Source: Protoeuglena noctilucae (lineage: Eukaryota). From it: a stretch of 64,000 nt of DNA. The stretch lies in the NCBI GenBank assembly GCA_958009085.1, contig OY253669.1:744001-808000 (forward strand), given 5' to 3'. Both the position numbers and the translations under genes were made by a program. The notes under the pieces are model-generated. The model had not been told where the DNA came from, searched no databases, and saw only the letters and a program-made list of their open reading frames with translations. Positions 3,401-27,400 of the stretch are shown piece after piece. Positions within the stretch are counted from its first letter, which is position 1. Every line of letters starts with the position of its first letter.

Positions 3401-5613
3401 GGAGCTGGAGGGACTCGCGCTGAGCCTGAACACCCAAGTCAAGGAGCTGCGGGAGAGTCTGGTGAGCCCGCACAGGGGGGCGATGGGCATTGGTGCAAAC
3501 GCCGTTGTGCCTTGGGACTGTCGCAACCCCCGCCGCCCTCTGCCGCCCCGCAGAAGGCCATGAAGGTCACGCGATCGAACGGCAACGGCTCCCGGCCCCT
3601 GTCGCCGGGGACGGTGTTCCCCATCTCCGACACGCCCATGCCGATGCCCGGCCCCCCGGCGCCCGCGCCGGTGGTGGTGGCGGCGAAGCGCGTCGAGGAG
3701 CTGGCGCAGACGCGGACGGGCCGCACGACGCCCGCGGAGGCGGAAGCGGAGCTGGACGCGGGTGGCAGCGCCGTGCCTCTCCCGACCCAGGCGAGCGTCG
3801 CTGGGTGGGGTGCCATGCCACAGCGACCCATCTGCCCTGGTCCGGGCTCGCTCACGGCCCGCGTCGATGCAGCTGACCTCCGCCGCTGCGCCCGCCCTCT
3901 CTGCGCCTTTCCTTGTGCCACCCGCGTACACCTCCTCACACTTCCACACTCTGTGCCGGTGCCGCACATCGGTGGCTGTGCCAGACTCCCCCTCCCCGCC
4001 TCTGCTGCCTCGCAGACGGCGCCGCGCGCCCCTAGCGAGACCGTCCGCCGGGGTGTTTCTGACGAAGAGGAGTCGCTGACGGAGGGGGAGGAGACGCCCG
4101 GGTTTGACCCCGAGGACGTTCCCCTGGGGTGGGTGCGAGAGAAGGTGGTGCAGGCGTCTGCGCCGGGGCTGGTGATGCGCATGGCGGGGGTCATGGCGCC
4201 GCACGTCGAGAAGGAGGGCCGCGGGGAAGACGCCTTCTTTGTGGCGGCGCGAGGGCGGGGCGCGATTGGCGTGGCGGACGGCGTCGGGGGCTGGAACCAG
4301 GAGGGGGTCAATCCGGGCAACTTCTCGCGGATGCTGGCGCAGACAGCGCGGGGTATTATCGAGAAGGGCCCGGAGAAGGGGTGAGGGCGCGCGGAGGGCA
4401 CGGGCGCAGTGCGGGCGAGTCCGCGAGTTGGCTTAAGTGCGCGGGCATGCATGGGGCGGCCACGTTCTCACCGCCGCGCATCGCACGTCGCCCCCGCAGC
4501 AGCGACTTGCGTGTCGTGATGGACGCTGCCCACCGCGCCACAGACATCCCCGGGGGCGCCACCTTCGTGATGGCCCAGCTGGTGGCGCCGTCGGGCGGCG
4601 ACGCGGACGCCTCGGCGACCCTTCAGGGCCTCAACCTGGGCGACTCGGCCTTCATGGTCTTCCGCAACGGCCGGCGTGTGTTTGAGAGCCCCACGCAGAG
4701 CCACGGCTTCAACATGCCCTACCAGTTCACCCAAGTGTCCAGTGAGCAGCCGCTGCCGCACTCTATCGTGTTGACTTACTAGTAACTCGGCCACAGTGTT
4801 TTTCCAATAGCCCACTTCAGTGCACCCTCATCGTTCCTATCGCCTGACCAATCGCAGAGTACCTCACATGCTCACTCACCTCCCACCCCTCCTCTCCCCG
4901 CAGTGTACCCCGAGTCCGACACGGCCGACCGCGCCGAGGCAATGACCTTTGAGGTGCGGGAGGGCGACGTGGTGGTGGCGGGGTCCGACGGCCTCTTTGA
5001 CAACCTCTGGCACTACGAGATCGGGGACGAGATCGTCGCCCACGTGCGCCGCGCCACGGGCGTCGCGAACTACGGGCCCGACCCCGGCTCGCGCACCCCC
5101 AAGCGCCCCACGAGCCCCCTGGGCACCGTGGGCGATTCGCTGGGGCTCGGGAGCCTCTTCGGCACGCGGGGGTCGTATGAGGACCGGGAGACGACGGAGT
5201 CGGAGTCGGAAGAGGAGGTCGAGGGACCCGTCGTCGATCTCAGGTGAGTGGCATGGGTTGAGGGGCGTGGGTGTTGGGGCTCACTGTCGACGTCAGGTGT
5301 GGGACATGGGCTGATGGGGCGTGGAATGTGGGGCAGGAGTGATAAGAACGCCTTCATCCCCAAAACTTGCAAGTGAATCTGTCTCCTTCTTCACAGCTCC
5401 GTGGACCCCGAGCCTTTGGCCGAGCGCCTGGTGGACTTGGCGCAGAAGTACGCCTACGACGAGGGTCACTACAGCCCCATCCTGGACCGGGCCAAGGAGG
5501 AGGGGCAGCTGCCGTGGCAGATGTACCTGCGGCCCACCATGGGAGGCGGCAAGATGGACGACTGCACGGCAGTGGTGGCCATGATTGTGCGCAACGGCCC
5601 ACGCAAGGCCTGA
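499..5613 (+). CDS. Multi-exon gene (~13 exons): long coiled-coil N-terminal half fused to a C-terminal PTC7/PPTC7-type PP2C phosphatase
   Basis: Exons can be joined in frame from ATG 499 to TGA 5611-5613. PP2C motifs: GEDAFFV, GVADGVGGW, NLGDSAF, QSHGFNMPYQF, GDVVVAGSDGLFDNL, GGGKMDDCTAVV. E/Q/A/R-rich heptad exons lie at 1300-3460. Start codon is tentative. Confidence 0.8.
5233..5334 (+). repeat. Degenerate tandem duplication (period 53) of an exon end plus 5' splice site
   Basis: GTCGATCTCAG|GTGAGTGGCATGGGTTGAGGGGCGTGGGTGTTGGGG (5233) versus GTCGACGTCAG|GTGTGGGACATGGGCTGATGGGGCGTGGAATGTGGGG (5286). Confidence 0.75.
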
Positions 5614-5904
5614 GGGCGCGGCGAGCGTGCCGGCGCGGTCTCTCTCGCGCCTCGTCACGCCGCACGTCGCATGCAGCGACAGGTAGCAGCAGCGACCATT
5701 CCATCCCTGCGCGAGATGCGCGGGCATTCTTTCTCACTCCCGCGCCAGCCGCGAGCTCTAGCTCTTCAAGCGTGGGACATGGCACTGGCCCCGTATCACG
5801 GGCATCTAGTCCAACCCAGCGACACGAACTATAAGAAGCCGGGTGCGCAGGCTGAGAAGCTATCGACACGCCCAAATGCAGTTGGACTGCGGGCTCGTGT
5901 CAGG

Positions 5905-8900
5905 TCATCGTGCACCGTCCCCCCTGCCCAGCTCCTCCTCTAACTGCTCCATTTGCCGACTCAAGTCTCGGACATCCACGCCCAGCGCCTCCATCTCCGC
6001 CAGCAGCGAAGACTGGTCTAACGCATCCGCACCCGCAACGGCACCCGCCACCCCCGCCCCACCCGCCCCTTCCCCCCACCCACGCCCTGCCTCGTTCCCA
6101 TCCATGCTCTCCCCTTCTAGCAACTCCAACAGGTCTTGATTGCCACCCCCGGCACCCTCCAGGCACCCCAAACCCTCGCCGCCCAGCCCAGCCAACACCG
6201 CAGCGGACGTGTCACTGGACAGGCTCATTCCGCCCCATTCGCTCCAAGGGACGTCGTCACGCAACGAAGCCGAGTCCCCTGCGCTCCACGGCGCCTCCCC
6301 CGCATCACCCACCCACAACCCCGCACCGGCGCCCACACCACCACGACTGCCACGTGCAGGCCGCCCTGCATTTGCCACCCCGTGCCGCGCACCCCGTGCG
6401 TCAGCGCTGGCCCCGACTGCACCATGCACCACCGCCGCTCTGCCACTGTCAGGGCGCGGATGTGACCCACCCCGCCTCCCCGTGCCCTTCCCTGCGCCGT
6501 CGCCACTGCCCCGCAACGCAGTCCCGCCGCGACTCTCCCGCACCCGCGCGCCCCCAACCCCTCGCGCCCCACCCGGCGGTGCGGCTGCCACAGCAGCGCC
6601 TCTGCTCCCCGCCAGCGCCCGCGTCCCCGCCGTGCCGCAGTCATGAGCGCCCCCGACGCAGCCATCCGCCAGCCTCCCGCCCCACGCTTCGTCGACCCAC
6701 CCCGTCTCCTGCACCACCCCACAGTCGATCACCGCCAGCGCCTGTCGCACGCGGTGCCCCTGCGCCTCCCTCTCTCGTCTCCACGCCTCGGTGGCCTCTT
6801 CCAGCTGCCGCCGCCCCTCCTCCAACCCCCGCTGCGCTGCTGCCACCCTCTCCCTCTCCGCGCTCAGCTCTTGGCCTTTGCGTCTAACGCCCTCCTCGCG
6901 AGCAGCCACCTCCGCCTCCCGCTCCCGCATCGACGCCCCTGCCCGATGCACCTCCGCTTCGCGCCGCGCGACCGCGGCCTCCCGGTCCGCGCATGCCCGC
7001 GCCCGGTCGCGGAGCTGCCGCGCGGCACGCGCCAGCTTCGCCTTCTGCTCGCGCAGGTCTCTGGAACCCTCTGCATCGTCGCCCGGACTTCGCGGCTCCG
7101 GAGGAGGAGAGACGGGGGCCGCCAGGTCCGCCCTTGCCTCCCTCAGCTGAGCCTCGAGGGTCGCCACCTGAAAACACGGCACACGCTGTGGGAGTGAGAG
7201 CTGGCAGCACTGGGTGCGGTGGTAACTGCAATGGGGCCTGATGGTGCCAGCGGTGGGCACAGAGCTATGAAAGGTAGAGGCCCCTACTCCTGCTCGCCTG
7301 GGCGGCAGATTCGGAGAGAGCGCGGTCCATTGCTGCCACCCTCGCTCGCAGTCGCTCGGCCTCGGCCCTTGCGACCTCTGCCTGCCGCTCCACCGCCTCC
7401 GCCTGACGCCGCGCCACCTCCGCCTCCGCAGCGGCTGCAGCGGCGGTGCGGGCGTGCGCCGCGTCCTTTGCCACCGACGACCGCACGACCTGAGGGAGAG
7501 CGGCACGAATGCTGAGGTGGCTTGGGCTGACCAAACATGGACTCTCAGCGATGATGCATGTACCACTGCCAGGGTACCCAGGTCTTCCTCTAGGCATGAA
7601 CCCCACCCCTGGCACGTTGCGGCGCCACCGACAACCCTCTCACCTCCTCTCTGGCTACCCCCGCCGCCGCCTCTGCGTCCCTGGCCCTTGCAGCCGACCT
7701 CTCCGCTTCCTCTGCCAGCCGCCGCCCCTCGCCCCTCGCCGCCGACAGCCGCACCTCCAGGGCCTTCCTCGCGCTCTCCGACGCCTCAAGTGCTTTCTCC
7801 AACGCCTGCACCCTCGCCTGGAAGCCGCCCAGCTGCGCCTCGGACCGACGCACAACGTCGTCGACCTGCGCAGAAGCAATGACGATGATGAAGGATGCAA
7901 GAGGAGAGGAATTCCGTGCTTCAGAGACACGTCTTGCAGCAAAGGTGCCATGCCCCTTGCTGACGGTCACAAAGCTGCCCTCGCCTGCCTCGCAAGCCCC
8001 TGCGCCTGCCGCGCTGCCGCGCTCTCCCGCCGCAATCGCGTTGCCTCCTCTCTCAGCGATGCATTCTCGTCCATCAACGTCCTCAGCTTCTCTGCGAGTT
8101 GAGGGGCACCGCGAGGGAACCCTGCCGACTCAGCACAGCACATGTCACAACCACCACAGCACGATGCACCACCTTAGCCTCACCAGCCATCATCCCCGCC
8201 CCAGCTCCAGCCACCCCCGACTCCCACGACTCGCACGCACACCCCCGCGCCCCTGCACTCCTTCCTGGGGACCCCCCTGGGGACGATGCCCTGGGTCGGC
8301 AGCACGCGCAACGTGCTCTCCCGCCGCCTCGCGCCTGCCGCCCACCCCCGCCCACCAAGTCGTCATCCATATCGCTGTCCGTGTCGAAGGCCGGGCCCGG
8401 GTCCGCCTGATCGGACGCCGTGCCCGCCACCGCCGCCAGCAAGTCCGCCATCTGCAACGTGCTGCGGTCCAGATGCCTGCGAATACCATGGCACAGAGCT
8501 GGTAGCACCTGAATCACCCTTTCATGATGTCGTCTTTTGCAGACCTCATGCCAGGTTACTGTCGCTGTGCCACACAAAAACGCGACTCACCGCGTGGCCT
8601 CCGCGTGCACCTTGGTCAGCAGCGTGGCCGCTTCCGGAGTCACGGCTCCAGGCACGCGGGCGATCCCCGGGATCTCGGCCAGCACCGTCCCGGCCGCGTC
8701 CAGCAGTGCCTGGCACTGGGTGGCGCGTGCTGAGACCGCCTCTCGCAGCGCTGTCAGGTCCTCCCGAGCCGCCTGCAGGGACCAACAGCACACGGCATGG
8801 CCACACCGCACTCGCTGGCTGTGCCGGCCGAGCCTGGCAGTCCGCTGCGTGGCTCTGACACCGCCCAGTCAGGCTGGCAATTTGTGTTTGCCATGTCACC

Positions 8901-9835
8901 CCACCTCTGCAGCGGCCCTGGCTCGCGACTTCTCCTTGCTCGCCGCCTCCTGCAGTGACGACAGCTGCATGGCCATCTTCCGGTTGCTGTAGTTTGCCGC
9001 CCGGCCCCTGGCGTCTGCCTCCTTGAACATCCGCTCCAGCTCACGCTGCTTGTCCACAGCCCTGAGGCGAAGGGAGAGGGAGTCGGGGTGAGAGAAAGGC
9101 GGGAAAGGACCATCTTGCACACCACCGCGACGCATGGCGCCATGCACCCTCCTGCCAGCCACGGCTGTGACCCTTCCCAGGCTTACCTGATGCGTCGGCG
9201 CATCTCCCTCTCCAGCAACGTCTGCAGCTCCCCGACGTCTCTGGCCAACGTGCTTGCCATGCCCTTGGAGGCCCTCAGAGCCGCGTCCACCTTGCCGCCC
9301 CGGAGGATGCTCGAAATGCGGCCCGCCAGCGCCGTCTGCCGCGCCCTGCGGGAGGGCCGCGTAACGGCGAGGGTGGTCGGGTTCGTTCCGCGAGTCACTC
9401 CGGCGTTCCGTGCGAGTGATGGCGCCCTCACCTGTCCGCGGCCGAGTCATCCTCTGTGCTAGACTCCCACGCAGCACGTTTCGGTGACGTGTAGACGTTC
9501 CTCGCAGCACGAGAGGCGGGGCTGCGGTACGGCGACCGCGATCGGGACCTGCGGAGATACGACAGCGAGAGATTCCAAGACTCTGCGCTGCATCGGGATT
9601 CTTAGCTTGTCGCCCCAGCTCATCCGCCCTCGGCTGCGCACCTGCCCGGACTCGGCTCCCGTGAGCGGGTCGGGCTGGGCGAACGTGCGCCCCGTGATCC
9701 ATGGACCGTATACTTGAGATGCTGCGCACCCTGCCGGTGCTGGGGCGGGGGGCAAGGGCCCTCGACGGCAGAGCTTGCACGCCTCCGGCTGATGAGCACT
9801 GCGTGCGCTAGCAGGCACGAGTGCGTTGCGCACAT
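5905..9835 (-). CDS. Multi-exon coiled-coil protein of unknown function
   Basis: Heptad-rich exons (e.g. LQTLLEREMRRRIR, KLRTLMDENASLREEATRLRRE, VATLEAQLREARADL) join in phase. The last exon 7168-5905 is open to the stop. The 5' exons and start are uncertain. Confidence 0.6.
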
Positions 9836-10840
9836 CTGGAAAAAGCGTTTGGCTGCTGTTTGACGCGCATGTACGTCCCGGTGTCCAGGCAGCTACGAGT
9901 AATCAGCTGTTGAATGGTCACCTGGCATCGTGTGCTGGGTCAGCTCGGTGCGGTCCCGCTTGAGGAAGTCGTGTGGACTAGCGGGTCGAGGATTGTTGTC
10001 GGAAAGTCTCTTGCGGCCTGCAAGCGCGATGCCACGACGCATGGCGACGGCGCGATGGCCTGCAACACAGTGGTAACAACAGGGCTGCGCCTGCGCTCTC
10101 GGTCCATGGTGTCCGCCACCTCACTCACTGATGTAAGGTTCCAATGGTTTCTTGTCGGACAGCAGCCGCCTCGCCATTGAGAGCTTGGCCTCCACACCGC
10201 TGCGGCCCATTCCACAGCACGAGCTGAGCCCCAGGGACGCGTTAAATTGGACACCGAGTCACCCCGCGCCTAACACGCATCGGCATGGCGACGAAGAGCA
10301 GACGAAGCGTCAAGGCTGTAATGCAAACAGAAAAGTTCACGCGTGCATCACTTCAGCGAACAAAATCAACGCCAACACTGGACATGCGCAGGTGCTATCC
10401 AGCACTGCAAAACCATTCGCGTGCACAGGGAGCAGAGGATGGCATGGTCGCCCACTAGAGCAGCGACACCGTCCTCTGGCGAGGCGTCGACTCAGCATTC
10501 GCCGGCCCCCCTGCGCCGAGAAGGGTCAGCGCCTCGCTGACATATTCATGAGCGCCGACCTGTCCTAGCTCAGCACCGAAAAGCCGCGTCAAGGACTCTT
10601 TCCGCGCTGCAAGCCGCTGCCATAACCTGCGCATGTCGGGCCGAAGAGCGGCGCAGAGAGTCTTGGAACTGACGCAGGGACGTCTCCCCGCACGTAAAGT
10701 AAACCCAGAACTCCGGCGGTTTCGCCTGTGCCACCGAAATCGAGCCTCACTGGCCGCCTAGGGCCCTGGTTTGGTAGGCAGGGCGGGCGAGGGTTTAGGC
10801 ACGGCGGGGAGCCCCCCCAGGCTTTGGGAAGGGAGTCGTC

Positions 10841-13545
10841 ATGCCGCCAAAAAAGGATGACCCGGGGACGGCGCCAGAGGTGAGCTGTCGACGTGGCGCG
10901 GGGCCGTCCTGTCCCGTTGCAGGGCATCGTGGGGCCAGCAGCCCCGCACGCGTCGCCTGCGCGTTCGCTGGCCTTTCTTTCGGTACATTTTGCGACGCTT
11001 GTTCTCCCGCCGCGCGTGGATGCAGGGCGACGAGGGGGAGGAGGAGCGGGAGCTCATTGAGCGGGAGCTCGCCATCGCGTACCTCAAGAGCAAGCTCGGC
11101 AAGTACCAGCAGAGCCGGGACTCGCTCGCGGGAGAGGTGGCGTATCTCGTGGCGGAGCTGGAGAAGGAGAAGTCGGACCACCGGTGCGGGCCGCGTGAAG
11201 CCCGTCTCGCAGCATGGGATGCCGTCGCTTGCATGCGCACACGCCCGTCGCTCCCGCTCCCGCAGAGCCATCATCGATCTCTTGACGCAACAGGCGAAGG
11301 CATCCACCCAGAGGATGGAGGAGATGACGGCGCAGAAGGACAAGCTGACCAAGGAGCTCGAGGACGTGCGGAAGCAGATGAAAAAGGAGCTGGAGGAGCT
11401 TCGCGCGGAGAAGGTCCGGCGCGCCGCGAGCTATTTAGTTGCTATACGGCAGTTTGCAGCCCTCGGAGCGCCGCACGGGAGCGCCAGGCGCACGTTTGGG
11501 GACGTCGCCCTTTCTGCAGGACGCGAGGATTTCTGAGTTGGAGGATCAGACGGAGAAGCAGCAGCACAAGCTGAAGGAGTTGGAAGAGTTCACGCGTCAG
11601 AAGGAGACGCTTCAGAAGGAGCTGGAGACGGAGAAGCAGCAGCGTGCGCAGGACGAGCGCAAGTGGCGCGAGGAGAAGACCACGATGGAGCGACACTTTG
11701 TGCAGGAGAAGGACCGCTGGCAGAAGGAGCTGCAGCACCAGATCAAGGAGACGAAGGCGAGGAAGCGGAGACAGTCGGCTGATGGACGCCTGCCCTGCTG
11801 GGTGGCACATGTGTCGACGCTGCTGCGGGCGTCTGGCGTTCCGCTTGCAGGCCCAGATGATGAAGCTGATGGACAACCAGCTCGAGATCACGACGAAGCG
11901 GACCATCATGGAGAACGAGCAGATGCACGCCGAGCTGGCCTACCAGAGCCGCCAGAGCGAGAAGATCGCCGCGCGCAACAAGCAGCTGGGCGACGAGAAC
12001 GCCGACCTGAGGCGCCGCGTGGAGCTGGCCAAGCAGACCGAGGCGAGTAGAAGACGCGGGGTGGAGAACATGGTTTGTCGTGGCTTTGGCATGGGCCCTG
12101 CCATGTACTGCGCGACGAATGCCGTCGGCCCTGGCGCCTGGGTCACGCAGGTGGAGCTGGCCAAGCGCAACCACGTGTACCAGAAGACGATCAAGACGCT
12201 GCTGGCCAAGATCCGTAGCGAGACCAAGGTCGCGGAGACGGAACAGAAGGAGGCGCACGGCCTGCAGTCCCACGTCGAGGTGCGCGTCGCGCTTTGTGCT
12301 TTGTGCATCGTGCGCAGCACGTCGGCTGCGTGCGCCGCGCTCGTCTGTCTATGCAGCGCCTCTATGGAGCACCTCGTGGTGATTTACATGCACTCGACGC
12401 GGCACAGCTGCTCGGCGGGTCCCTGTGACCCATCCTGCATCGTTTCGGGCTCTCCCTGGACCGCAGCTGCTGGACAGCCGCGTCCACGCGCTGAGCATCA
12501 CGTGCCAGGAGCTGAACGACCAGCTGAGGGCGGCGAGGGACCACGCCGTCCAGCTCGAGGAGGAGCACGACCTCTGGATGCAGCGACAGGTGGGCAGGCC
12601 GTCACCACTGCTGTCACGATGGTACCGGACGCACCGCTCGGGTGCATCCTGATCATGCCCTATTTCATGGTAAACCAGAGCCTTATGTGCTTCTCCTCGA
12701 CCGCAGGGCGCCGCTGCGCTGTTCCTGATGCAGAGCATCGAGGACATTGCGTCTCTGGAGCCGGACCACGTGGACCATTCAATGCGGGACCTGGCCACGC
12801 GAGCCCAGGAGTCGTGGGCCTCCATGACGCCCGAGGACCGCACCGCGCTGCTGCGGAAGCTCCTGCTGTCGATGCAGGTGAGGGATGTGTGTACGGGAGC
12901 TGGGAGCAGGGCCAGCCTGGGCCGGTGGACTGCCGCGTGTGTGCCAGACCGGTGTGTGTGGTCGTACCTCGCAGGTGGTCGACCCCAGCATGGGCGGGGG
13001 AGGCGCCGGCAAGGCGGGCACGGTGGACCGACTGGTGCTGCCACCCGTGACTCATTCCCGGACCAAGATGTCGATGCGGCAGATCCGGGGCACGTCGCAG
13101 AAGGGTATGGGGGACGCAGGGGACACGGATGTGCGCAAGTCGTCGTCCAAGGCGAGTGAATGCGCGACGCCACCGCTCGCGGGGCTGGGTGCGGCGCGAG
13201 CGGGGCCGGGATGGCCTGTGTGTTCAACGCCTTGCAGAGAGTGGTGGCGACCAACAAGTGGCTGAAGGGGGAGCGTGGATCGGAGATCATGTACGGCACC
13301 GTTCCGGGCGTGGAGGACCTGCTGGAGGCCGTGACAAGTGGGAAGGCCGACTTTGCGCTGCTGGTGAGGGGCGCTATTTTTCGGGTGCCGTGGTGGATGG
13401 CAAACGCGCGTCGCGATGCCGACGACCACGCTCTTCTGGGTCCCTCTCCTTCCCACGCAGTCGATGCGCCATTCCACCACTCGGCCCCGCAGCGCCAACT
13501 CCATGGCATCGGGTCCCAAGAGCATCCGGAGGGGCGATGCGCTAA
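10841..13545 (+). CDS. CFAP157: Cilia- and flagella-associated protein 157 (11 exons)
   Basis: MPPKK start. Spliced product contains LEEFTRQKE, MERHFVQEKDRWQKEL, ITTKRTIMENEQMHAELAYQSRQ and KRNHVYQKTIKTLL, which match my recollection of the CFAP157 coiled-coil. Stop TAA 13543-13545. Confidence 0.8.
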
Positions 13546-13765
13546 AGGCGTAGCTGACATGCACGCGTCAGATAGCTGGCCAGCGAGCGAGCGAGATTAA
13601 TGGCTCGTCAGAGCGACCACGCTGCGCTTATTACGCTTGAAGCGAGGGGAGGGGCTAGGTCGGGCGTCACAGTGATCAGACGATAAAGGGGCGCTGGCGT
13701 GACCGATACGCCTTCCACCTTCGCCGTGTCCCGGCTCGAGACACCCAGTGGCCCCACCATCTACA

Positions 13766-16581: not shown

Positions 16582-18050
16582 GGGGCGGTACGGCAGCCCG
16601 GCCCAGAAAGCCGCGTGGCTGCTGCCGCTGCTGCGGGGCGAGGTGCGTTCGTGTTTCGCCATGACGGAGCCGGCCGTGGCGAGCTCGGACGCCACCAACG
16701 TATGCGCCTCGATCCACTGGGACCCCTCGGGCGCCGCGGCGCCAGGCGAGGGCGGCCCGGGGGGCACGCTGACGCTGGACGGTGTCAAGTGGTGGATCTC
16801 GGGCGCTTGCGACCCCCGGTGTCGCGTGTGCCTCTTCATGGGGAAGAGCGACCCCCACGCCGCGCCCCACAAGCAGCAGAGCATCGTCGTTGTGCCCATG
16901 GACACCCCGGGGGTGCGCGTCGTGAGGCCACTCACCGTGGTGAGTGGAGAAGGGTGTGTCAATGCTGCACGACGTTGCACAGGACATGTGACGTGTGATG
17001 TGTCATGACCAAGGAACGCCTGCGTAGCTGCCTACCAAGTCAAACCACGCCCACCCCACACACCTACTCCTTCATGTCTGTTACCACCACCAGCATAGTC
17101 CGCCCGCTCTCTTCTTTACCCACAAAGCAACTCCCTCTCTCTCCCCATCCATCACCGCAGTTCGGCTTCGACGACGCCCCCCACGGCCACGCGGAGGTCC
17201 ATTTCCGGGAAGTCACCGTGCCGGCGTCCAACGTCGTCCTGGGCCTCGGCCGGGGCTTCGAGATCGCCCAGGGGAGGCTCGGCCCGGGCAGGCTGCACCA
17301 CTGCATGCGGCTGATCGGGGCGGGCAACCGCGCGCTGCGCCTCGGGGCCGAGCGGGCGCTGGGCAGGACGGCGTTCGGCAAGCGGCTGGCGGACCTGGGG
17401 AGCTTCCGGGAGAACCTCGCCAAGTGAGTGGAATGGGTCATTTGTGATGGTGATGGTGACTGTGAGGGATCTGTGAAGGGGTTGATCTCCCCACCCGGCC
17501 CTGTGCTCGCCTGTCCAAATCTCTTTGCCATGTCACATCTTGCCCTGCGCTCGCCCGTGCAGGGCGCGGGTGGAGCTGGACGCGGCCCGGCTGCTGGTGC
17601 TCCGTGCCGCCAGTGCCATCGACTGCCTGGGCTCCAAGGAGGCACGTGTCATGGTCGCGGCGGCCAAGGTCGCGGCCCCACAAGCGAGCCTCCGGTGAGG
17701 GGATGTGGGAATGGGTGTGTGAGGCAGGCAGTTTGCGAGGGAAGCGTGTCCGAGTGGTGCTTTTTGGAATGCTGAAGCACCAGAGAGGTACTGGGCTGTG
17801 ACGTGCGATGCAGGCTTGGCAGAGCGTGTTGTGGGACCGTGCACATATGCGTCACGCCAGCGTCGCCCGCCATCGTCTCTCCTGCAGGGCGATCGACGTG
17901 GCCATGCAGGTGCACGGCGGGGCAGGGGTGAGCGGGGACACCCCTTTGGCGTGGCTGTGGGCCCAGGCGCGAACGCTGCGGCTGGCGGATGGACCCGATG
18001 AGGTGCACTGGGGCACGATCGCCCAGGCGGAGCTGCGATCGAGGCTGTGA
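13766..18050 (+). CDS. Acyl-CoA dehydrogenase with N-terminal APH/kinase-like domain (ACAD10/ACAD11/IBR3-type), peroxisomal
   Basis: APH part: [43 protein letters not shown] part: [63 protein letters not shown]-terminal PTS1 SRL*. Confidence 0.92.
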
Positions 18051-18422
18051 GTGATCGCCAAATGCACTTCATGCAAATCACTAAGACGTCACAATCGCTT
18101 CAAGGACTGTTAATACGACTATCCTGTGAATCCGGCGGAACTAGGCTGGCTGGGCGAGTAGACGCTATGTGAATCGCATCGATGCGTGGGAAAGGGAGTG
18201 AAACACGGCAAGCCAAGTACTCTTGCTACCCAAGGATTGCCACAAAGTGTGGTTGCTTTGCTGAGGATCGTGGGGATCTGACGCACGCTGTGCCAGCACG
18301 CAGGGACTGCCAGCAGGCGTGCCGGGGTGCAACACCTACCACCGACCATGACACCACAGCATGGCGCATCGTCGGCTGTGACCAGACCACACCAGGCACG
18401 GCTACCCAACTCCAGCGCCGCT

Positions 18423-21400
18423 TCATGGTGCAACGGAGACGGGTGCGATGGAGTCCTTGCTGTTGGACTTCTGCAGCCACCCGGACGCCAGCACTCGGTC
18501 CTTGGCGTTGGCCAGGCTGTCCAAATGCTCTGCGACCCTGGCCCCGTTAATCACGATCATCACCCACTGCCGGATGCTCGCGAGCGTGGGCGAGGACTTC
18601 TGCGCCTCGGCGTGGGACACCCCGCTGAGCAAGGCCAGGGCCGTGGAGAGCTGCGAGGGCTTGATGGCCGTGACGGGCGCGCCGAGCTTGACATCGTTGG
18701 AACATTCGGACATGAGGACGAGGGCGTTGCGGGGCTCGCTCGACTCGAACGCAAGCTTGGACTTGATCAGCGACCACGCCTTCTCGCGGCCGGAGCCGTC
18801 CGTCAGGTCCAGCTGACCCAGGGCGCGCACGTCGCCCGCGAAGATGAGGCAGTGCATGGCCGCGAGGATCCGCGTCACCTTCTCCGTCGGCTCGCTGCGG
18901 ACGCAAACGGACGCCAACCGGGATATAGTACACTAATGAGTACTACCCAACGCACACAGAGCGAGTGCTAACACTGCGAGTCGTGTTGCAGACGCCCCTC
19001 CTCACGCCGCGTTCCTTGCCAAGGCGTTCTCGGGACTCACCGATGTCCCTTGATCTTCATGAGCTGCTCCTAGCCTCTCAACACTCACCGGTAGCTCTTG
19101 ATCTCCATCAGCTGCTTCTGGAGGTCCTGCAGCGCGCGCACTTGGAACACGACCAGCTTGCTGAGCGTGCCGTACAGGGCGCGGTTGCCGGGGAGGTCGT
19201 CCCGCAGCGTCACCAGCCCGTCCGGGCTCTCCTGCAGCTCCTTCTCCACGCGAACCATGTCCTCCGTGCGCCGCCCGCGCTGCTGCACCCACGTCGACAG
19301 CTCCTGGGCCAGCTGCTGCAGCAGCGCCCCGACGCGCCAGTCCACGTGGGGCTCCGGGTCGAGCTCGGGGTAGTGATCGGCGCGTTTCTGGCAGGCGCAG
19401 AGCTCGCAGGGATCGCGGCCCTCGTCCGCGGTCGCCACGACCCCGCCCAGGATCTGCAGGCCATCCGTGGCGTGCTTGGCCGTGCCCGGGCGGTGGCGCC
19501 AGATGGGCGCGATGGAGACGCCGTGGCGCACGGCCAGGCCCACGAACTCGTCCGACTCGATGCGCTTGGCCATTGTCTTGAAGACGCGGGGCACGTGCTG
19601 CGGGGCAAGCGCCGTTGGGAGCGTGTCTTGTCACACACAGTCACCACCGCACCCAACGCCACTGCATCCCACGCCGTGCCACCGCACCTGCATGCGCATC
19701 ATGGCGCCGTACAGGACCGTCAGCTCGTGCAGCCGGGCCACGCTCATGCCCCCGCCGCCGCCACCGCCGCCGCCGCCCTCTCCCCCGGACTGCCGCGCCT
19801 GCGCCACGGCCTGCGCCACTGCGCCCCCGAAGCCGCTGCCGTCCTTGTTGGGTGGCGTCGGGGGTGGCCCCGGTGTCTTGGTGCCCTGCGTGGACGCATC
19901 TGCCAGCGACCCGAGGCTCGCCGAGCTCCGCTGCCGGGCCTGCTTGCGATTCCACCGTGACTGCGAGCGGTGGGGCAGACACGCTTGTTGGACGACATCC
20001 GCTGTCACGAGGAGCCTGATAATACCAGCCCCGCCATGTTCAGCAACGTGTATAGCAGCGCAGCGGGCCACCCCCCCGCCACCGCCACCGCCACTGCCCG
20101 GGGGGGGGCAGGGACGCTGAGTGACTTGGCATGTCAGGCTCACCCGGTTACCGAACGAGGTGTCGAAGTCCCCCGGCAGCTCCTCCGCCGGCGTCAGCGC
20201 CGCGTTGAGCTCCTGCAAGAAGCGACGCGAGGGGAATGGGCTGGGCTCATGCGTGCGATTCACAGAAGCTGCGCCCGGCCCCGGCACTCCCCCGGCTGCG
20301 GTACCGACCGTCCTGCGCATTGCCAAGCCATCCGCATGCCCTACGCGCCAGGAACCTTGCTTTCATGCACAGTGACTCTCACCCGCGCACGTTTGGTGGA
20401 CACGGGAAGCAGCTCCCCCGTGTACATGACGTCCACCTCGGGCGCCACCTGCACCACGTCGGCAGGGTTCACGGCCGCGAGCCCCAGGCGCTGGGTCAGC
20501 TTGATGACCTCGGGGGGCGGCTTGCTGGGCACCAACTCCCCACGCAGCTTGGTGGTCGTGGCGCCGTCGACCGGCAGCTCCAGCACTGCGAGCGGGGTGG
20601 CAGAAGGACTTGTAGTATGCTCGCAAGAGTCTATGTTCGTCATATCTTAGTGCCATCCGCACGCCAACCTTGCCACACCACCCTTGCCAGCCCCAGCCAC
20701 GCCAACACCAACCCCAGCCCCGCCAGCACCAGCCCCGCCACACCAGCCACTCACCGGTGAGGCGCACGGAGAAGTCCCGCAGCATCTGCCTGGCGACGGC
20801 GTCGAGGTGCTCCAGCAGCAGCTGCGGCGAGGTGGCCTGCGACGTGGCTGCAATGAGCTGCTCCGTGGCGGTGAGGGCCGAGTCCTCTGCTGTGTCGCGG
20901 ACGAACCGCGAAAGCACCGACGAGCGCGCGCCGATCCATCCGTACACGCGGCCCTGCGAGGAGAGCGTCGCAGGGTGGATTACCGGCTGGGTTGGCGGGC
21001 GCAGTGTTGTGCGGGTGAGACACGCATCGACATTGATACTGGCATGCCAATGCTGCCCGAGTGGTATTCGTTGTGAGCGATCCGCCGACATGACGATTCT
21101 CGTCCGTCCGCTCGCCTGGAACTCCGAGGGCAGCCGGGTGAGCGTGAGGGCGGCGAGGTCCGGCCGCTTGCGCGCCAGGGACACGACGAACTCCGCAGCC
21201 ATCTCGGGGTCCATCTGGACCAGCGCGGAGCACATTTTCACCACGTGCTCCTGCACCATCTCCTGCGGGTCCCGCATCTCCCGCTCGCTGATGGCGCGGC
21301 GCATGGCACGGTCTGGCCCCGTTCGGATGGCCATGGACGTGACCTTGGCGAGCGGGGGGCGGCCCTTGCCGCCCGAGGAAGCCTGCGGGGAGCAAGCGGA

Positions 21401-24400
21401 GGCAGGTGGCGATCCAATGCCAGTGCTAGACGGGTTCCACGACAGTCACCCTTGCTCAACCAACTAATCGATCCCAGGGCAACTGAGTGGGCCACTCCAA
21501 GGTGGGAGTGCCAACGATTGGGCCATGGCAGGCAAGGAGTGGGCTAACTGTAAGTGATTAACAAGTGGGCTGCGATTGCGTTCGCGTCGCACCTTGGATG
21601 GCCTCGGCAGCGGCATCCCCTGGCCCGGGGTGGCGCTGGACATAGGCACGGGGCTCGGGGCGCCACTGCGGGAGCTGGGGGTCGTGTCGCCGACTTGGGA
21701 GTTGGAGTGGGAGGACGACTTGCGGACGATGATGCGCTCGGGGACGGAGACCTGGGGGCGGGGGCGGAGGGAGCGAGTCTAGGGAGGTGTCTGCGACAAT
21801 CACAGCGCGACAGTGACCGGTCACGGGCGCTGCAAGCAGCGGCGCCCGGGTGTCTGTCTCGCCTGCGACTCCTTGGCGAGTTTCGTGACTCGGAATTCGA
21901 TCTCCTCCGCCACGCGCACCGCCTCCGCGATCTCTCCCGACGTGACCAGGTCCCGCAGCATCATCTGCGTGGCCTCCTCGGGGGTCATGTCCTTCTCCGC
22001 CCTGAGGGAGAGGATGGTGCGGGTTATATCACATTTGCATCATACGCAAGAGTCGTGTCCTTGTCCTTCCTGAGAGGATGGGGTGCGGACATCCCATCTG
22101 CTCATATCGCATCTGCTCTATGCAAGTCATGTCCTTCTCCGCTATCTGCAGAAGCGCACCGCTGACTTGGGGGTACCCAAGCGACTCCACCCAGCGGCAA
22201 GGGTCAACGGCAGCCCGTCACACACCCGCACCTACACGAGCACCCCGGCAGTCCTCACTGGGGTCCAAGCATCAGCAGAGGTCAAGCGCAGCCTGTCACA
22301 CACCCACACGCACAGAAACACCCCGGCGGACCAGTTGGCTCACTTGGGGTCCACGCGCCGGTTGGTCTTCTTCTTCCCCACGGCCGCGAGGAACTTCTGC
22401 AGGCTCTCCTGCACCGACATGCGCTTGTTGAGGTCGGTGAGGGACACGCGCGCACGCAGGGCCGCCTCCGCGTCCAAGTCTCTCAAAATGCGGTTGTGCT
22501 TCCCGGTGTCCACGATCGCCTCGCAGGCCTGCGCCACGTCGCGCGCCGCGATCCACAGGCGCATCGCCATGTCCACCTCCTCCACGAAGCGCGTGGGGGC
22601 GTCCGAGCGCTGCGGCGGGGGCAAACGGTGCGGTTGAGGACGGCACCAGCTGGTCAGGAATGCGACATAGCGCTGCACGCTGGTCCCCGGCAGCCCAGCG
22701 TTGCGGGCAAGGGAAGGCACGACGATGGCCGGGTCTGCTGCGCCCTGCCCGGCGTGATTGACTGCATGCGGGCAGCATGCGCGTGCAACACCAACGAGTC
22801 TCTCACGTGGAGGGTCATGAGGATTTGCGAGGTCCAGTTGGGTCCGATGAGGTTATGCATCTCCGCGAGCAGAGAGCCGACGCGCGCGGGCTTCATCTGC
22901 CGCATAACCCACACCGCGCGGTCGATGGGCCACTCGCGGGCGAAGGTGACGTCGGACAGCCGGAAGAAGGACAGCATCTGGAGCAGCAGCGTCTCTGCGG
23001 GAAACGAGAGGAGGATAGGGTCAGCAGTAGTGGTTAGCAAAGTAGCGAAGAAGGTGTCGCAATCGCAATTTGTGGTCTTTCGACAGAAGAGAGGCCAGGC
23101 CATCGCGCAGTGCCACTCTGGCTCCGGTGCGTGGCTCACCGGGCAGGGACATGAGGGCGCTGGCCACCATGGTCTGGGTCCGGCAGTTGCGAATGGCGAG
23201 GACGGACGCCACGGGGCCGTTTTCGAGCATCCACACGGCCATCTCGTTCGCGCTCCCCATGTCGTCCAGCGCCGCGCGGTACTGCGTCTCCAGCGACGCC
23301 TCGCTCGCCGTCATCGTCGCCATCACCGCCGGCAGCTCCACCTTCGCCTTCACGCCCTCTGCGCGGGGCAGGGGCAGGGGTGAGAGATGAGAGATGACAT
23401 AGAAGATAAGAGATTAGCAGTAGCCATTCTTCTCGGCGCCGAGTGTGGGCTGAGAGAGTCGCCGTGAGGGACGCCAAAGAACCAAGGAACCCCCACGCAA
23501 GCACTAACAAGGCCCCTCACGTAAGCACTCCGATTACGTGGATCCACCGTCGCTCACCGGACGTCGCGGGTGGCTTGGTGTCGAATATCTTGGTGAGCTG
23601 GCCGAGGATCTTGTGGTGCGTGGCCCGGTAGAGCCCCTTGCGCGCGTGCTGGTACTCGGCGCACGCCGCAAACACCTTCTGCAGGTTGCTCTCGTCGCTC
23701 TCCGCGAGTCCCCGCACCACGGCGTGCACGCGCGCCTCCTCCATCTCCACCAGCGTGTGGCCCACAAGCTGCTCGTCCATGTGCTGCGGAGGAGGGCGCA
23801 GAGAGCGCAGCGTGAGCCGAACAGCGTGAGCCGAGGCGCTCTGGCCGACAGCATGGGCATTCAGCACCAACTGCAACATGGCATTATCGGCCGCGGATGC
23901 AAGCTGGCATGGACAAGTATCCCGCAACCACCTCAATGGCGGGTGCACTTGAACTGTGCCAGGCCGAGTCGCCCACACCACTGCCACTGCCTCCTCACCT
24001 TCAGCACCTCCGCAGCCACTGCCTCCTCACCTTCAGCACCTCCACCGCCTCCGCGTCCTCGACCCTCGCCAGCACCGCCGAGCGCAGGCTGGCCGGCAAG
24101 GGCTGCAGCAGCTGCGCCACGATCGGCGGGTCCGTGCCCTTGGCAGCCGAGTGGATGGCGTAGAACTGGCCCCCTTTCCACGCGGCGATGGTGAACAGCG
24201 GCGCGTGCGGCACGCCCCCCGTCGACCCCGGCAGCCACCGGCGCAGATCCTTGAGATTCTTTCCCCTAGCCACCTGCTCCGCCAGCTCCGCGGCGTTGAC
24301 GGCCACGGCAACCGCCTGCAACACGCCCACGCTCGAGGACGTCTGGCTCTGGGCGAGCCTGGGGTGGAGGGGCGGAGGGGCGCGGGTCAGAGGGCCGGCG

Positions 24401-27400
24401 GCATGGGGAGTGCGGTGGTTGCAGCCAAGGGCCGGGAATGGCGGGCTATGGAGCGCACTGTCTGGCACAAACAGTACTTAATGTACAGGAGTCGTGGGCA
24501 GGCGAGGCTGAGGCCTGCATTGCACGCGTGCATGCGTGCGGGCATGGGTGCATGTGTGCACTCGCCTGTGGTCGAGCAAGCTGAAGAGCTGCTTGTCCTT
24601 GACGAGGAAGAAGCTGGCGATGGCCTCCACGTTGAGACTCGACACGATTTCCTCAAACACGTTGACGTCGATGGAGAGGAGGAGGCGGCAGGCGTCGCCC
24701 GGGTTGCTCTGGGCCACGATGTGGCAGGCGGTGCCGGGGCCCAGGATGGCCAGGAGATCGCGCATGTTCTTCAGGGACAGCTGCGGGCGGGAGGGGATGC
24801 GGCGGTGAGGGGTCAGGGCCCGGTGTTGGCTGGGGCCAAGGGTGTGGTGTGGCTGTGTGCGGGGCAGCCAATCTTCAGGTGGTGAGCAGCGCGGTCGGCA
24901 GGCTGGCCACTTGCCTCCGAGTAGTCGAAATCGAACGACGTCGGGTCGAACTCCTTCACCCACGCCGCCAGCTCCTCCTCGGATAGCCGCTTGAGCGCGT
25001 GCGACACGGACACGTCGCTCTGGGATGCCAGCTTCTGCAGCTGCTCGTTCAGGTGCTCCAGCTCCCGCAGGCGCGCCTTCAGGGCCTTCCTGCGAGTTGC
25101 ACAACAGGTACAGGCGGTCATGACCATAGCTTTCTGCTCAGTAATCCCTTCTGGGGCGCAACCACTGCAACACCGTGCACCGGCTGTGATGCACCGGCCG
25201 TGATCCAGGCACGTGATGGCATGACCCCGCCTGTGTCAGCACCCTGCCTGTGTTAGCACCCAAAAGTCACCTCTGTGCATCGAATTCCTCTGCCTCTCGT
25301 GCCTTCAGCTCCCGGAGCTTCTCTGCCGCCGCCACCCGGGCCTCCATGTTGGCCTTGGCCTGCGCCATCTGCAGTGACACCCAGGAAGTCGAAGGTGGTT
25401 AAGGAAACGAATCCTTGCAGGGAACTGTGCGACCGCGTGGTCAGTCGATGTCCGCCCACCTCCATCGCCCCTGCAGCCACCCCGTCCCATTCATGTCCAG
25501 CATCCCCGCACCTCCCACTCCATCCGCAGCCATCCCCACCCTCACCTCCACCCTCCCACCTCATCCACAGTTATCCCCGCACCCTCACCTCCCACCACAT
25601 CCGCAGCCACCCCGCACGCTCACCTCCTCCACGGCCTTCTTCTCCTGCCTCAGCTGCGTGGACAGGTGCTTGATGCGCGCCAGGGCGTCCTTGAGCTCCT
25701 CGCTCTGCATCACGCGGTGCACGCTGATGCCCTTGTGGCTGGGCTGGCGGCGCACGAGACGGCCCTCGAGCGACTGCACGTTGCTGATCAGGTCCTGCAT
25801 GTCCATGCGCAGACGGGCATTGAGCTCGTCCTCGTCGTACGCGTCCGCCTCACTCAGCCCGTCTGCGAGCAAAGACAAGCAGACGCTGGGGTCAGAGCGC
25901 AGCGTCATGGTCGCCACACGACCGTCTGACAAGCAGCACAGGTGCAGCACCCCCACACTCCTGGCTGCGACGGACGACGACCTAATCAATGCGCTCCATC
26001 ACACGCACCCCCCCCCCCCCCCCCCCCCCATCACGCACCTGACCCCAGTGCCCCCGAGTCCCCCGACCTCCACACGCTCCCGCGCCCCGCGCTGCGCCCG
26101 CTCCGCAGCGACAACTCCTTGTTCGATTTGGACTGCGGCTTCAGCACCCCCAGCCCGCTGCTGATGCTTCTGAGGCCCAGGGAAGCCTCGCCCACTGAAG
26201 GCGCCCCCTCCGACCCCTCCCCATCGCCCCCGAGCGCACCGCTCCGAGACTCCCACCCGCCCGACTTCCGGCCCAGCCCCGCCGCGCCCGTTTGGCTCGA
26301 GGGCCGCGACCGAGGCTCCACGATCGGCGCAGTTCGGAACGCCACCTCCTTCGCCACCCCGCGTGACCCCTCAGGCACTGCACCCCCGCTCACGTCCCCC
26401 CGGCTCGCAGGCGCCTCCTCGCCGCCCCCGTCTGCAGCCTCCGCCTCGCTTGCAGGCTTCTGAGCCGATGCCGCGTCGGCGCTGCGGGCGGCCTCGCTCG
26501 GTGCCGCCCTTGCAGCCGCGCTCTCCTCTCCAGCCCCGCCGTCCCCCGCTGCAGCGGCCGCACCGCTCGCCGCCCTCCCCACCCCCGCGGCCCCTCCCTC
26601 CGCGCCCGCGCTTGCGTTGTGAGACGGCTGCCGGCCCATGTCAGCCACCTTCCCCGACCCCGGCCCTGACCCCGCCCTCTGTACTGGCTCTGGCATCTTG
26701 GTGCTTTTGGATCTATCCGCCCCGGCCTCCTTGTCCTTCGAGCTCTTGGGCCGACCCCGCCCCTGCGCCGCCTCCCCGCTGGCAGTGCGATCTGCCTGGT
26801 CACCCACAGCGCTGTGCAGCTCCTGCTCATGGTGGGACTTGGACTCCAATTCCCTGCGTCGGTATGACGTCATATCATCGGAGCATGCCAGTGAGGGCAC
26901 ACACGCTGCTTGCACAGCTCATCCAAGTCAAGGTGACGAGCACGCCCGCAGTGAGCGAGGGTCGAACGTGATTGCTGCTCCCCACTAAACGGCGCACGAG
27001 GCCTGGCTGCGAAGTGACCTGGCAGGCGCGGTCGCGCCTCACCGGTTGCGGTTCTGCAGCTGCTCCACGAGCGCAGACGTGGACTGGAGCTTCTCAAAGG
27101 TCTCGTGCACGCGCTCGCGCAGGCCCTCCAACTCGGCGCGCAGGATGACGTTGTCCGCGTTGTACGTGCGCAGCTGATGACCGATGATCTGCGAGGGCGC
27201 CTCGCATGCGAATGGGCAGAGAGCATTGGCCTTGCCGCATGAGGGGCAAGGCACGGTGCGATGCAACGTGCTGCGCGGTGCAGCTGCCGAAACACGGAGG
27301 AAGCTCCGGCATAAGGGTGTCTCATCCGGTGCCCTCGTCGTGCTCAGCACCTTGGTGAGGAGGCCTTGGCAGAGCAGGAGCAGGGGCTTGAGGTCCATGA

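Follow-up and report, generated by a model that had tools for sequence, protein, structure and literature searches.

Copies of their own exon/intron junctions in five introns of Protoeuglena noctilucae and their probable origin by ordinary tandem duplication

Introduction

Five introns lying within 20 kb of DNA from Protoeuglena noctilucae carry tandem copies of their own exon/intron junctions, exonic bases included, and the question is how these copies arose. A preliminary description of this DNA had offered two answers, namely that ordinary tandem duplications survive where one intact junction remains, or that a splicing-coupled mutational process targets the junctions. In our analysis ordinary tandem duplications of about 30–85 bp, straddling an exon/intron boundary by chance, probably explain all the cases. 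The kind of structure is already known, as in human F7 intron 7, and the present introns appear to be a further case that ordinary duplication would explain well enough.

Materials and Methods

All statistics were derived from one window, by which we mean the whole 64-kb stretch analyzed, with gene models from an HMM built in this analysis. The intron set consists of the 126 introns predicted in the window (median length 128 nt); outside the introns shown by RNA the models include at least two false intron calls, 26549–26563 and 45075–45158. The RNA evidence consists of contigs, which cannot show rare splice forms; 25 joints beyond those listed, and the parts of the stretch lacking RNA cover, count neither for nor against any reading. 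A nuclear PsbR gene is present in the window. To our knowledge PsbR is confined to the green line, and from this gene the organism looks like a green alga.

Gene 1 (499–5613, forward strand) is modeled with 13 exons encoding a coiled-coil protein, and its last intron bears site 1; the gene lies outside the stretch covered by the comparison reads. A designation as phosphatase-like would rest on motifs picked out by eye and is not claimed. Gene 2 (18423–28091, reverse strand; 24 exons, about 1918 aa) bears sites 2–5, and at least six of its introns are shown by RNA joints among the joints listed. Its product aligns with the orthologue P0004 over 1676 columns, 749 of them identical. Single exons of both genes matched no Pfam family, and the gene 2 exon 19089–19595 used as query found no match among longer proteins. 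A protein search with exon 22346–22609 returned as its sole match an ORF called without splicing from this very DNA, which is uninformative on splicing. A metagenome scan with an exon of the window found no relative, and the scan with P0004 found three contigs on which the gene is intronless and so offers no counterpart of the junction copies from which to read their age or conservation.

Junction copies in five introns

In one intron of gene 1 and in four of gene 2, the intron's own exon/intron junction is copied one to three times nearby. The copies include 7–35 exonic bases, and identity ranges from an exact match over 28–29 nt down to 74%. In six of six events the alignments place the copy on the intron side of the true junction and directly adjoining it. 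According to our own arithmetic the copies make up about 13–66% of the length of the five introns. The preliminary description had reported at least five such introns in two genes, and all five were recovered within a few bases of where it had placed them.

The intron of site 1 (5244–5396, forward strand) has its donor at 5243/5244. A decayed copy of the unit at about 5284–5336 carries a donor-like GT at 5297; the offset is 53 and 42 of 57 positions are identical (donor probe z=7.4). The true donor has a PWM score of 9.1 and the copy one of 4.2; splicing at the copy would add 53 nt and run into a stop two codons on. The basis for this junction consists of the HMM gene model and an in-frame stop directly after the donor.

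At site 2 (intron 18895–19088, reverse strand, donor 19089/19088) the exon end and the donor are copied at about 19029–19076 with the copy donor at 19040. The copy lies at offset 48, is identical at 43 of 54 positions, and takes in about 35 exonic bases, and the exon-to-intron similarity reaches z=5.5. The true donor scores 7.1 and the copy 5.0, and the 48-nt insert resulting from use of the copy has an immediate in-frame stop. This junction is given by an RNA joint connecting 18894 with 19089, and the alignment with P0004 is gap-free across 19089.

Site 3 (intron 22002–22343, reverse strand, junctions from the HMM model) has copies on both sides, and about two thirds of the intron consist of them. 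A copy of the donor unit at about 22180–22270 contains a donor-like site at 22258 (70 of 92 positions identical, donor probe z=3.5). Two copies of the acceptor unit (acceptor probe z=8.1) are found at about 22050–22112, with an AG at 22070 and 46 of 58 identical positions, and at about 22126–22150, with an AG at 22146, 31 of 46 identical positions and an exact 17-mer. All copies have PWM scores below those of the true sites, and use of every one of them leads to an early stop. The orthologue alignment shows a four-residue indel near 22344.

In the intron of site 4 (23784–24030, reverse strand, donor 24031/24030) an exact 28–29-nt copy provides a second donor at 23998. The repeat 23984–24011 against 24016–24043 has offset 32, reported by Tandem Repeats Finder as period 32 with 2.6 copies, and this copy is the youngest of the set. 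Both donors score 8.0; splicing at the copy would add 32 nt and cause a frameshift, with a stop 10 codons on. A piece of an RNA contig begins exactly at 24031, and the orthologues P0003 and P0004 align gap-free.

Site 5 (intron 25369–25623, reverse strand, donor 25624/25623) shows a small array of 35–43-nt units behind the donor, for which Tandem Repeats Finder gives periods 36 and 41. The copy donors are at 25588 (37 of 43 identical), 25545 (40 of 47) and 25511 (26 of 37) and score 8.0, 8.0 and 6.5 against 7.8 for the true donor (donor probe z=5.1). The exonic part shared is 7–9 bases, the weakest among the five sites. P0004 is gap-free across 25624 and across the next exon of 98 nt.

Two further candidates were rejected. 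The 18-nt unit present four times at the predicted acceptor of a sixth intron (45075–45158) reads on the minus strand as an in-frame six-residue coding repeat, and this HMM intron is probably false. At 39086–39154 a 31-nt unit with acceptor-like motifs is duplicated in the interior, away from the true acceptor at 39234, and every reading frame that follows these motifs runs into stops.

Placement and reading frame of the duplications

Such duplications are likely to stem from slippage during replication or from repair between short direct repeats. After a duplication across a boundary one of the two junctions would keep its old surroundings, the upstream one in the case of a donor and the downstream one in the case of an acceptor, and for this reason normal mRNA could still be made. 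The second copy would turn into intron and so lengthen it. Duplications of the same size inside an exon would disrupt the reading frame except where their length is a multiple of three, and would be removed. Since the introns are short (median 128 nt) and placement would be random, a large share of the surviving duplications of this size, about half on geometric grounds, is expected to span junctions. The inner copies would then be silent or unproductive pseudo splice sites which decay by mutation, and mis-spliced RNA would presumably be removed by nonsense-mediated decay.

The periods of the repeats follow this pattern. After re-classing of three loci, the period is divisible by three in 9 of the 11 exon-classed repeat loci with a score of at least 13, the two exceptions being the weakest (score 13.5), and in 4 of the 12 loci in introns or at junctions, the third expected by chance. 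The locus 26417–26570 was dropped as a junction locus; its class was due solely to a 15-nt false intron in the model. With the copies on the intron side, the stops behind the decoy sites, this period filter and the geometry described below, the first answer of the preliminary description fits throughout. If it holds, short introns grow by local duplication and selection shapes where duplications are seen.

For the geometric test the seven duplications of at least 30 nt (30–85 nt) were placed at random on the 126 predicted introns. Under this placement 3.28 of the seven would be expected to span a junction, and six do (P=0.036; the expected share depends on size and is 0.29–0.71). This nominal excess over a uniform expectation counts against ordinary duplication and for a mutational process aimed at the junctions, in which breaks or slippage via transcription- or splicing-linked structures at G-rich intron starts would let duplications arise preferentially at junctions, mainly donors, so that introns grow from their ends. 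The same holds for the predominance of the donor side, with five donor-side events and one acceptor-side intron (two copies), and for the clustering of four of the five affected introns in gene 2, which holds 23 of the 126 introns (post-hoc binomial about 0.004, own arithmetic). In their first 50 nt the introns are rich in G on the sense strand (G 0.375, C 0.296), and in two species of green algae tandem repeats are reported to be significantly more frequent near intron–exon junctions, which could reflect a real bias at intron ends (Zhao et al. 2014, G3, PMC3887541, in the part cited here).

Against this stands that the sample is seven events from 64 kb, and that P rises to 0.18 under the modest correction that junction copies, one of them being constrained, stay detectable twice as long. 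Counted per probe there is no excess: with probes of 40 nt each, a local copy at z≥5 turned up for 6 of 238 at junctions and for 7 of 246 in the interior, or for five and six after removal of the false intron 45075–45158. The junction enrichment for which the preliminary description had proposed to search genome-wide is, within the window, nominal in the geometric comparison (P=0.036), gone after the detectability correction (P=0.18) and absent from the probe counts. A donor bias is also predicted by selection, because a duplicated acceptor upstream of the true one would more likely be used, and G-runs are abundant, as judged by eye, in just two of the five donor units. We conclude that a junction-targeted process is not needed for the data, which lend it weak support, and we regard it as an unlikely cause of the copies.

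In its wider form, that small tandem duplications arise preferentially at junctions and mainly at donors in this alga, perhaps in GC-rich green algae generally, through transcription- or splicing-linked fragility of intron starts, we would give the proposal a small chance. If it were true, introns would lengthen at their ends and be supplied all the time with fresh competing splice sites, a mechanism would be at hand for the published repeat excess near intron–exon junctions, and this might be of importance in a lineage in which a relative has an intronless version of the same gene. Likewise, a genome-wide excess at junctions, if true, would indicate mutational events linked to splicing or transcription and would explain the pile-up of repeats at green-algal intron ends.

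Use and fate of the copied splice sites

At sites 2 and 4 the outer donor is the one spliced in the main RNA contigs, and among the joints listed there is no RNA joint at sites 1, 3 and 5. The orthologous protein is collinear and gap-free across the junctions of sites 2, 4 and 5. Use of any donor- or acceptor-like copy leads to a stop 2–33 codons past the junction. No shifted junction was seen at the five sites, where all alternative sites lead either out of frame or into a stop; the copies could in principle supply the raw material for one.

A reading in which the copies are kept for a function, as extra sites for U1 snRNP or another factor or as unproductive sites that tune expression via nonsense-mediated decay, would accommodate several of these observations. 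Regulated unproductive splicing calls for a stop whenever a copy is used, and this is the case here; the first three intron positions are GTG in seven of seven donor copies, and the young copies at sites 4 and 5 equal the true donor in strength (8.0 against 8.0 and 8.0 against 7.8). The older copies, however, are decayed at the splice site as in the rest of the unit (4.2 against 9.1, 5.0 against 7.1 and 4.7 against 6.5 for copy and true site), the units differ between sites, and the orthologue of the relative has no introns at all. Moreover, donor-like motifs are depleted in the intron interiors of the window (8 against 16.0 ± 4.0 in dinucleotide shuffles; 3 against 16 when the interiors of the five introns are left out), which argues for selection against rather than for such motifs. 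We therefore consider a retained function very unlikely. Under ordinary duplication sites 4 and 5 are natural test cases for how the alga chooses between identical neighboring donors.

GC donors occur in 3 of 12 RNA-shown introns among the joints listed and in 27 of the 126 predicted introns. Although GC donors are common, GT is found at each of the five true donors and at every one of their copies, and the suggested link between the copies and the relaxed (GT or GC) donor rule found no support.

Occurrence of the copies in other data sets and relation of the units

An ungapped offset scan (offsets 16–300, score at least 16) gave 36 matches, compared with 2, 0, 0, 1, 0, 0, 0 and 0 in eight block shuffles. 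Donor probes on sites 1, 2, 4 and 5 and the acceptor probe on site 3 reached z=5.1–14.9 relative to the same probes on other introns. Of the five sites, Tandem Repeats Finder alone detects two, sites 4 and 5, together with a fragment of 14 nt from site 1. A contig of 124,495 nt from run X1 covers 6200–25994, a span that leaves out site 1, with no differences and no gaps, and pieces from run X7 are identical over 17925–19322, 21542–22020 and 24975–25734 (sites 2 and 5 and part of 3). That the copies are chance similarities or assembly artefacts is hardly credible given the scan, the probes (z=5–15) and the recurrence of the same sequence in the 124-kb contig of a second data set and in pieces of a third, even though the exonic part of site 5 is just 7–9 nt and purine-rich and site 1 lies outside the read check.

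Among the three DNA sources, compared as contigs only, no difference in presence/absence or copy number of the copies was seen. The loose ends at 24012 and 24044 in run X7 and the back-joint from 25553 to 25530 in run X1 were not accepted as alleles; the letters attached to them are unrelated, and the matches are about one unit long. The preliminary description had inferred an ongoing process from the spread of identities. The spread does make this plausible, and since the three sources show no copy-number difference we do not take it as established.

The units of different sites are not related to each other. Their pairwise scores do not exceed 8, which for most units lies under the 95th percentile of the null and for all units far under its maximum. 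Within the window no dispersed copies of the units were found, and an all-against-all comparison of the 126 introns revealed no intron families, with 10 matches (five pairs) of 14–18 nt as its only yield. Within the window this bears out the earlier statement that the copies do not derive from one transposon family.

Comparison with known systems

Introner elements and other introns born from transposons, known from Micromonas, Aureococcus and others, form multi-copy families with target-site duplications at both intron ends. The likeness lies in the marine GC-rich alga and in the repeated sequence at intron borders that includes the splice signal. Here, in contrast, the units are mutually unrelated and tandemly repeated at one end of the intron, and within the window there are no similar copies in many different introns. 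The in-frame sites 3–12 nt apart that characterize NAGNAG and GYNGYN tandem splice sites differ as well from the present copies, which are 32–144 nt away and all lead to stops.

The original model of intron gain by tandem duplication is reportedly that of Rogers. Intron gain by tandem duplication of an exonic AG/GT proto-splice site, and intron sliding, are treated by Lehmann et al. (2010, PMC2891723), whose pertinent passages share with our case the local tandem duplication that creates a second splice signal and the possible buffering of the mis-spliced or unspliced form by nonsense-mediated decay. In that model the new intron is as long as the duplication; its 5′ part repeats the beginning of the exon that follows it, and its 3′ part the last bases of the exon that precedes it. 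In our case, by contrast, the duplication extends an intron that already exists, and the copied exon end is situated near the 5′ end of that intron. Similarity between intron and exon at z≥5, as expected for intron birth by duplication, was present in just 3 of the 126 introns, and all three cases are the junction copies themselves. The exact 16-mer at 12019 and 12151 flanking the intron 12043–12150 was also discarded as a trace of intron birth, the offset being 132 and the intron 108 nt, and was left as a coding repeat.

The survey of Zhao et al. (PMC3887541) deals with GC-rich, intron-rich green algae. In the parts cited here, the density of tandem repeats is highest in introns, and 3- and 6-nt motifs dominate in coding sequences. 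It counts repeats inside annotated introns, mostly short motifs, and these parts describe neither units that combine exonic bases with a splice site nor decoy sites. A literature search for tandem repeats or duplication at splice donors of Chlamydomonas gave nothing relevant.

The closest system is intron 7 of human F7, where according to the passages cited a 37-bp VNTR minisatellite has its first unit across the exon 7/intron 7 boundary and supplies pseudo donor sites that are functional yet silent (Borensztajn et al. 2006, PMC1557585). As far as these passages go, the differences are that we find five introns within 20 kb instead of one locus, in another organism and in other genes, that one case is on the acceptor side, that most copies are old and decayed, and that the copy-number polymorphism of the VNTR was not seen here among three DNA sources, compared as contigs. 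In both systems, as described there, a unit of a few tens of bases takes in the exon end and the donor, one or more identical or nearly identical donor copies follow the true donor inside the intron, and the most upstream site is used, in our case by the main RNA contigs at sites 2 and 4. The outermost unit spans the boundary and carries the splice site at all five of our sites, on the basis of RNA for sites 2 and 4, of the orthologue for sites 2, 4 and 5, and of the gene model for sites 1 and 3. Site 4 with its exact copy and site 5 with its three extra units of 35–43 nt look alike in anatomy to the F7 intron as described in the passages cited.

Junction copies in five introns

At all five places named in the preliminary description the sequence and the alignments confirm that an intron carries adjacent copies of its own exon/intron junction, the copy being the inner, intron-side one. 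In gene 1 (499–5613, plus strand) intron 5244–5396 (site 1) has its donor at 5243/5244 and a donor-like GT at 5297, 53 nt further on, with 42 of 57 positions identical. The other four sites are in gene 2 (18423–28091, minus strand). At site 2 (intron 18895–19088, donor 19089/19088) about 35 nt of the exon end were copied together with the donor, the copied donor lying at 19040 (43/54 identical). Site 3 (intron 22002–22343) is affected on both sides, the donor 22344/22343 having a copy at 22258 (70/92) and the acceptor 22002/22001 having copies at 22070 (46/58) and 22146 (31/46, with an exact 17-mer), and roughly two thirds of this intron consist of junction copies. Site 4 (intron 23784–24030, donor 24031/24030) has an identical donor at 23998, where 28–29 nt are exact at an offset of 32 (35/40 overall). 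Site 5 (intron 25369–25623, donor 25624/25623) has copies at 25588 (37/43), 25545 (40/47) and 25511 (26/37); only 7–9 exonic bases are shared there, and the claim that exonic bases were copied is therefore weakest at this site. By arithmetic from the alignments the share of added material in the intron ranges from about 13% at site 4 to 66% at site 3, and without it all five introns would come near the median length in the window. Tandem Repeats Finder missed sites 2 and 3 and reported site 1 only as a 14-nt fragment.

The true junctions are backed by several kinds of data. For site 2 there is an RNA joint 18894>19089, and at site 4 a piece of an RNA contig begins exactly at 24031. A protein search with the exon adjoining site 4 returned a pair of related proteins: P0003, with 55% identity, and P0004, which is 1744 aa long. 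The predicted gene 2 protein is identical to P0004 in 749 of 1676 columns, and in this alignment the 18 residues before and after each of the junctions 19089, 24031 and 25624 align without a gap, as does the 98-nt exon following the 25624 junction; near 22344 (site 3) there is a four-residue indel. The junction of site 1 is based on the gene model and on a stop codon met in frame immediately after the donor.

An ungapped scan (offsets 16–300, score at least 16) gave 36 matches against 2, 0, 0, 1, 0, 0, 0 and 0 in eight block shuffles. When 40-nt junction probes were scored against the remainder of the intron from which they came, other introns serving as the null for each probe, the donors of sites 1, 2, 4 and 5 and the acceptor of site 3 reached z = 5.1–14.9. 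An assembly artefact is ruled out for sites 2–5 by a 124,495-nt contig from a further DNA data set (run X1), which shows no difference over 6200–25994; pieces from another (run X7) match at sites 2 and 5 and in part of site 3. Both RNA and DNA contigs break at a 22-nt C run (26008–26029, in intron 25863–26038) and at a GCC repeat (19738–19788). A contig of the RNA library X10 over 19105–19737 is unspliced through intron 19598–19687; either this intron was retained or the library contained DNA.

Gene structure

The window has a G+C content of 63–72% and holds nuclear genes with many short introns. Marine metatranscriptome contigs define 12 introns in the stretch compared, nine GT-AG and three GC-AG. 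A small hidden Markov gene finder, trained on the exons and introns shown by RNA, was applied to both strands and yielded 15 gene models with 126 internal introns (median 128 nt); of the 12 introns shown by RNA it recovered 11, the missing one lying before the start of a model. Throughout the gene models the donor sequence is G[T/C]GAG, and most acceptors have GCAG as their last bases. GC donors occur in 27 of the 126 predicted and 3 of the 12 RNA-shown introns. At least two modelled introns are false, 26549–26563 (15 nt) and 45075–45158, the latter judged probably so: at 45067–45141 an 18-nt unit present 4.2 times forms an in-frame six-residue coding repeat on the minus strand.

Pfam matches on single exons agree with the models; they comprise a phosphotransferase and acyl-CoA dehydrogenase gene, FAP206, three consecutive pieces of the ribonucleotide reductase small chain, a formin FH2 domain and PsbR. 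PsbR is not known outside the green line, and the nuclear PsbR gene together with the flagellar protein suggests a flagellate green alga. In other marine algae GC-AG frequencies of 14–17% are tied to high G+C in the relevant passages of a preprint (bioRxiv 10.1101/2024.10.30.620910).

Consequences of using a copied site

Use of any donor- or acceptor-like copy would add 14–256 nt and lead to a stop 2–33 codons after the junction, and copies at in-frame offsets would also meet a stop. The inner donors may be silent, or may be used in transcripts that are then degraded. Scored with a matrix built on the predicted introns, the old copies fall below the true sites (4.2 versus 9.1, 5.0 versus 7.1 and 4.7 versus 6.5), whereas the young copies equal the true donor (8.0 versus 8.0 at site 4; 8.0, 8.0 and 6.5 versus 7.8 at site 5). 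Only five motifs within introns score as high as the median real donor, four of them in sites 4 and 5. Counting motifs that score no lower than the 25th percentile for real donors, we find the interiors of all predicted introns depleted of donor-like motifs, with 8 where 200 dinucleotide shuffles give 16.0 ± 4.0. The five introns contain five of these eight, leaving 3 against 16 outside them. Selection therefore seems to act against donor-like motifs in introns, and duplications seem to be their main source here. The suggested connection with the relaxed GT/GC donor rule did not appear, since every donor at the five sites, whether true or copied, is GT.

Origin of the copies

The best reading is that ordinary small tandem duplications together with a selective filter account for the five sites. 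The outer junction would retain its context and normal mRNA would still be made; the inner copy would turn into intron, lengthen it and decay. At site 4 about 8 nt before the unit resemble its end, as would be expected had the unit arisen by slippage between short direct repeats. This first of the two explanations offered in the preliminary description draws support from the outer site in its context, the period filter and the geometry.

The filter is visible in the repeat periods. Among 32 repeat loci at a score of at least 13, three were re-classed, 12019 (exon to exon), 26417 (a model artefact and hence rejected as a junction locus) and 45067 (coding). The period is divisible by three in 9 of 11 loci classed as exon, the two exceptions being the weakest (score 13.5), and in 4 of the 12 remaining intron or junction loci, which is the chance third.

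A splicing-coupled process that targets junctions is not needed, though it keeps a low probability. The test for a junction excess proposed in the preliminary description was run on the window. In our geometry model a randomly placed duplication of length d is retained when it falls within an intron or across a junction; the inputs were the 126 intron lengths minus duplicated material and at least 5 nt on each side of the junction. The chance of spanning a junction is then 0.29–0.71 for d = 31–82. For the seven events of at least 30 nt in the window 3.28 junction-spanning ones are expected and six are observed (P = 0.036), the seventh (39086–39154) being in an intron interior. However, if junction events are assumed to be detectable twice as long, one copy being under selection (a factor taken as an upper bound), the expectation rises to 4.36 and P to 0.18. 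Nor is there an excess per probe: z of at least 5 was reached by 6 of 238 junction probes and 7 of 246 interior probes (5 versus 6 without the false intron 45075–45158), most interior matches being intronic parts of the same duplication events. Gene 2 holds four of the five affected introns but only 23 of all 126, and donor-side events outnumber acceptor-side events; both are odd, but the counts are small and the comparison is post hoc. Selection, too, would produce a donor-side bias, because a copied acceptor that lies upstream is likely to be used.

That the units do not belong to one transposon family stands within the window, and introners are likewise excluded there: between-site unit scores are at most 8, under the null 95th percentile for most units and well under the null maximum for all, no further copies of the units occur elsewhere in the window, and the 126 introns have only 14–18-nt matches in common.

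Relation to known systems

The five sites are real and well-placed new examples of an already known phenomenon. The closest anatomical match, as far as the published passages describe it, is intron 7 of human F7, where the first unit of a 37-bp minisatellite spans the exon/intron boundary and identical pseudo-sites, functional but normally silent, come after the true donor, the most upstream site being chosen (PMC1557585). In Chlamydomonas and Volvox tandem-repeat density is, according to passages of a survey, highest in introns, with significantly more repeats near intron–exon junctions and 3- and 6-nt motifs dominating coding sequence; unlike the copies in the window, the repeats in these passages do not include units with exonic bases and splice sites (PMC3887541). 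Intron birth by tandem duplication is a related idea whose defining geometry the copies in the window do not share. Word searches of the open-access literature, which prove little, found no description of recurrent junction duplications in an alga.

An intronless orthologue and minor loci

In a relative whose G+C content (69%) is close to that of the window the gene 2 orthologue encoding P0004 is one uninterrupted reading frame of 5232 nt on three metagenome contigs (L001:2658–7889, L002:1265–6496 and L003:3001–8231), and a neighbouring 708-residue RCC1-repeat frame in L002 is likewise uninterrupted. Gene 2 in the window has 23 predicted introns, six of them RNA-shown; many introns were either gained in its lineage or lost in the relative. 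Because its orthologue has no introns the relative cannot be used for dating the duplications.

The 31-nt duplication at 39086–39154 (84–90% identical) has an acceptor-like TTGCAG in each unit and stops in all frames behind; it was rejected as an acceptor copy, as it starts 16 nt inside intron 39070–39234 and is interior. An exact 16-mer at 12019–12034, 8 nt before the donor of intron 12043–12150, recurs at 12151–12166 directly after the acceptor; the offset of 132 against an intron of 108 nt speaks against intron birth by duplication, and the 16-mer probably represents a repeat in coding sequence. Between the site 3 donor unit (22262–22356) and the gene 1 exon at 4043–4061 there is an exact 19-nt match (E = 3e-5 for the window), which may be due to chance in low-complexity sequence. 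A 33/72-nt repeat at 57977–58133, with 94% identity over 68 nt, lies shortly before the exons of the FH2 domain (59275–60074); it is probably the proline-rich FH1 part of the formin, and the modelled gene start at 58233 is therefore likely too late. In DNA without a gene model a 24-nt unit occurs 3.5 times at 56563–56645 with 98% identity; beside it lies a G-rich array (56990–57196) whose offsets are all divisible by three and which may be unannotated coding sequence.
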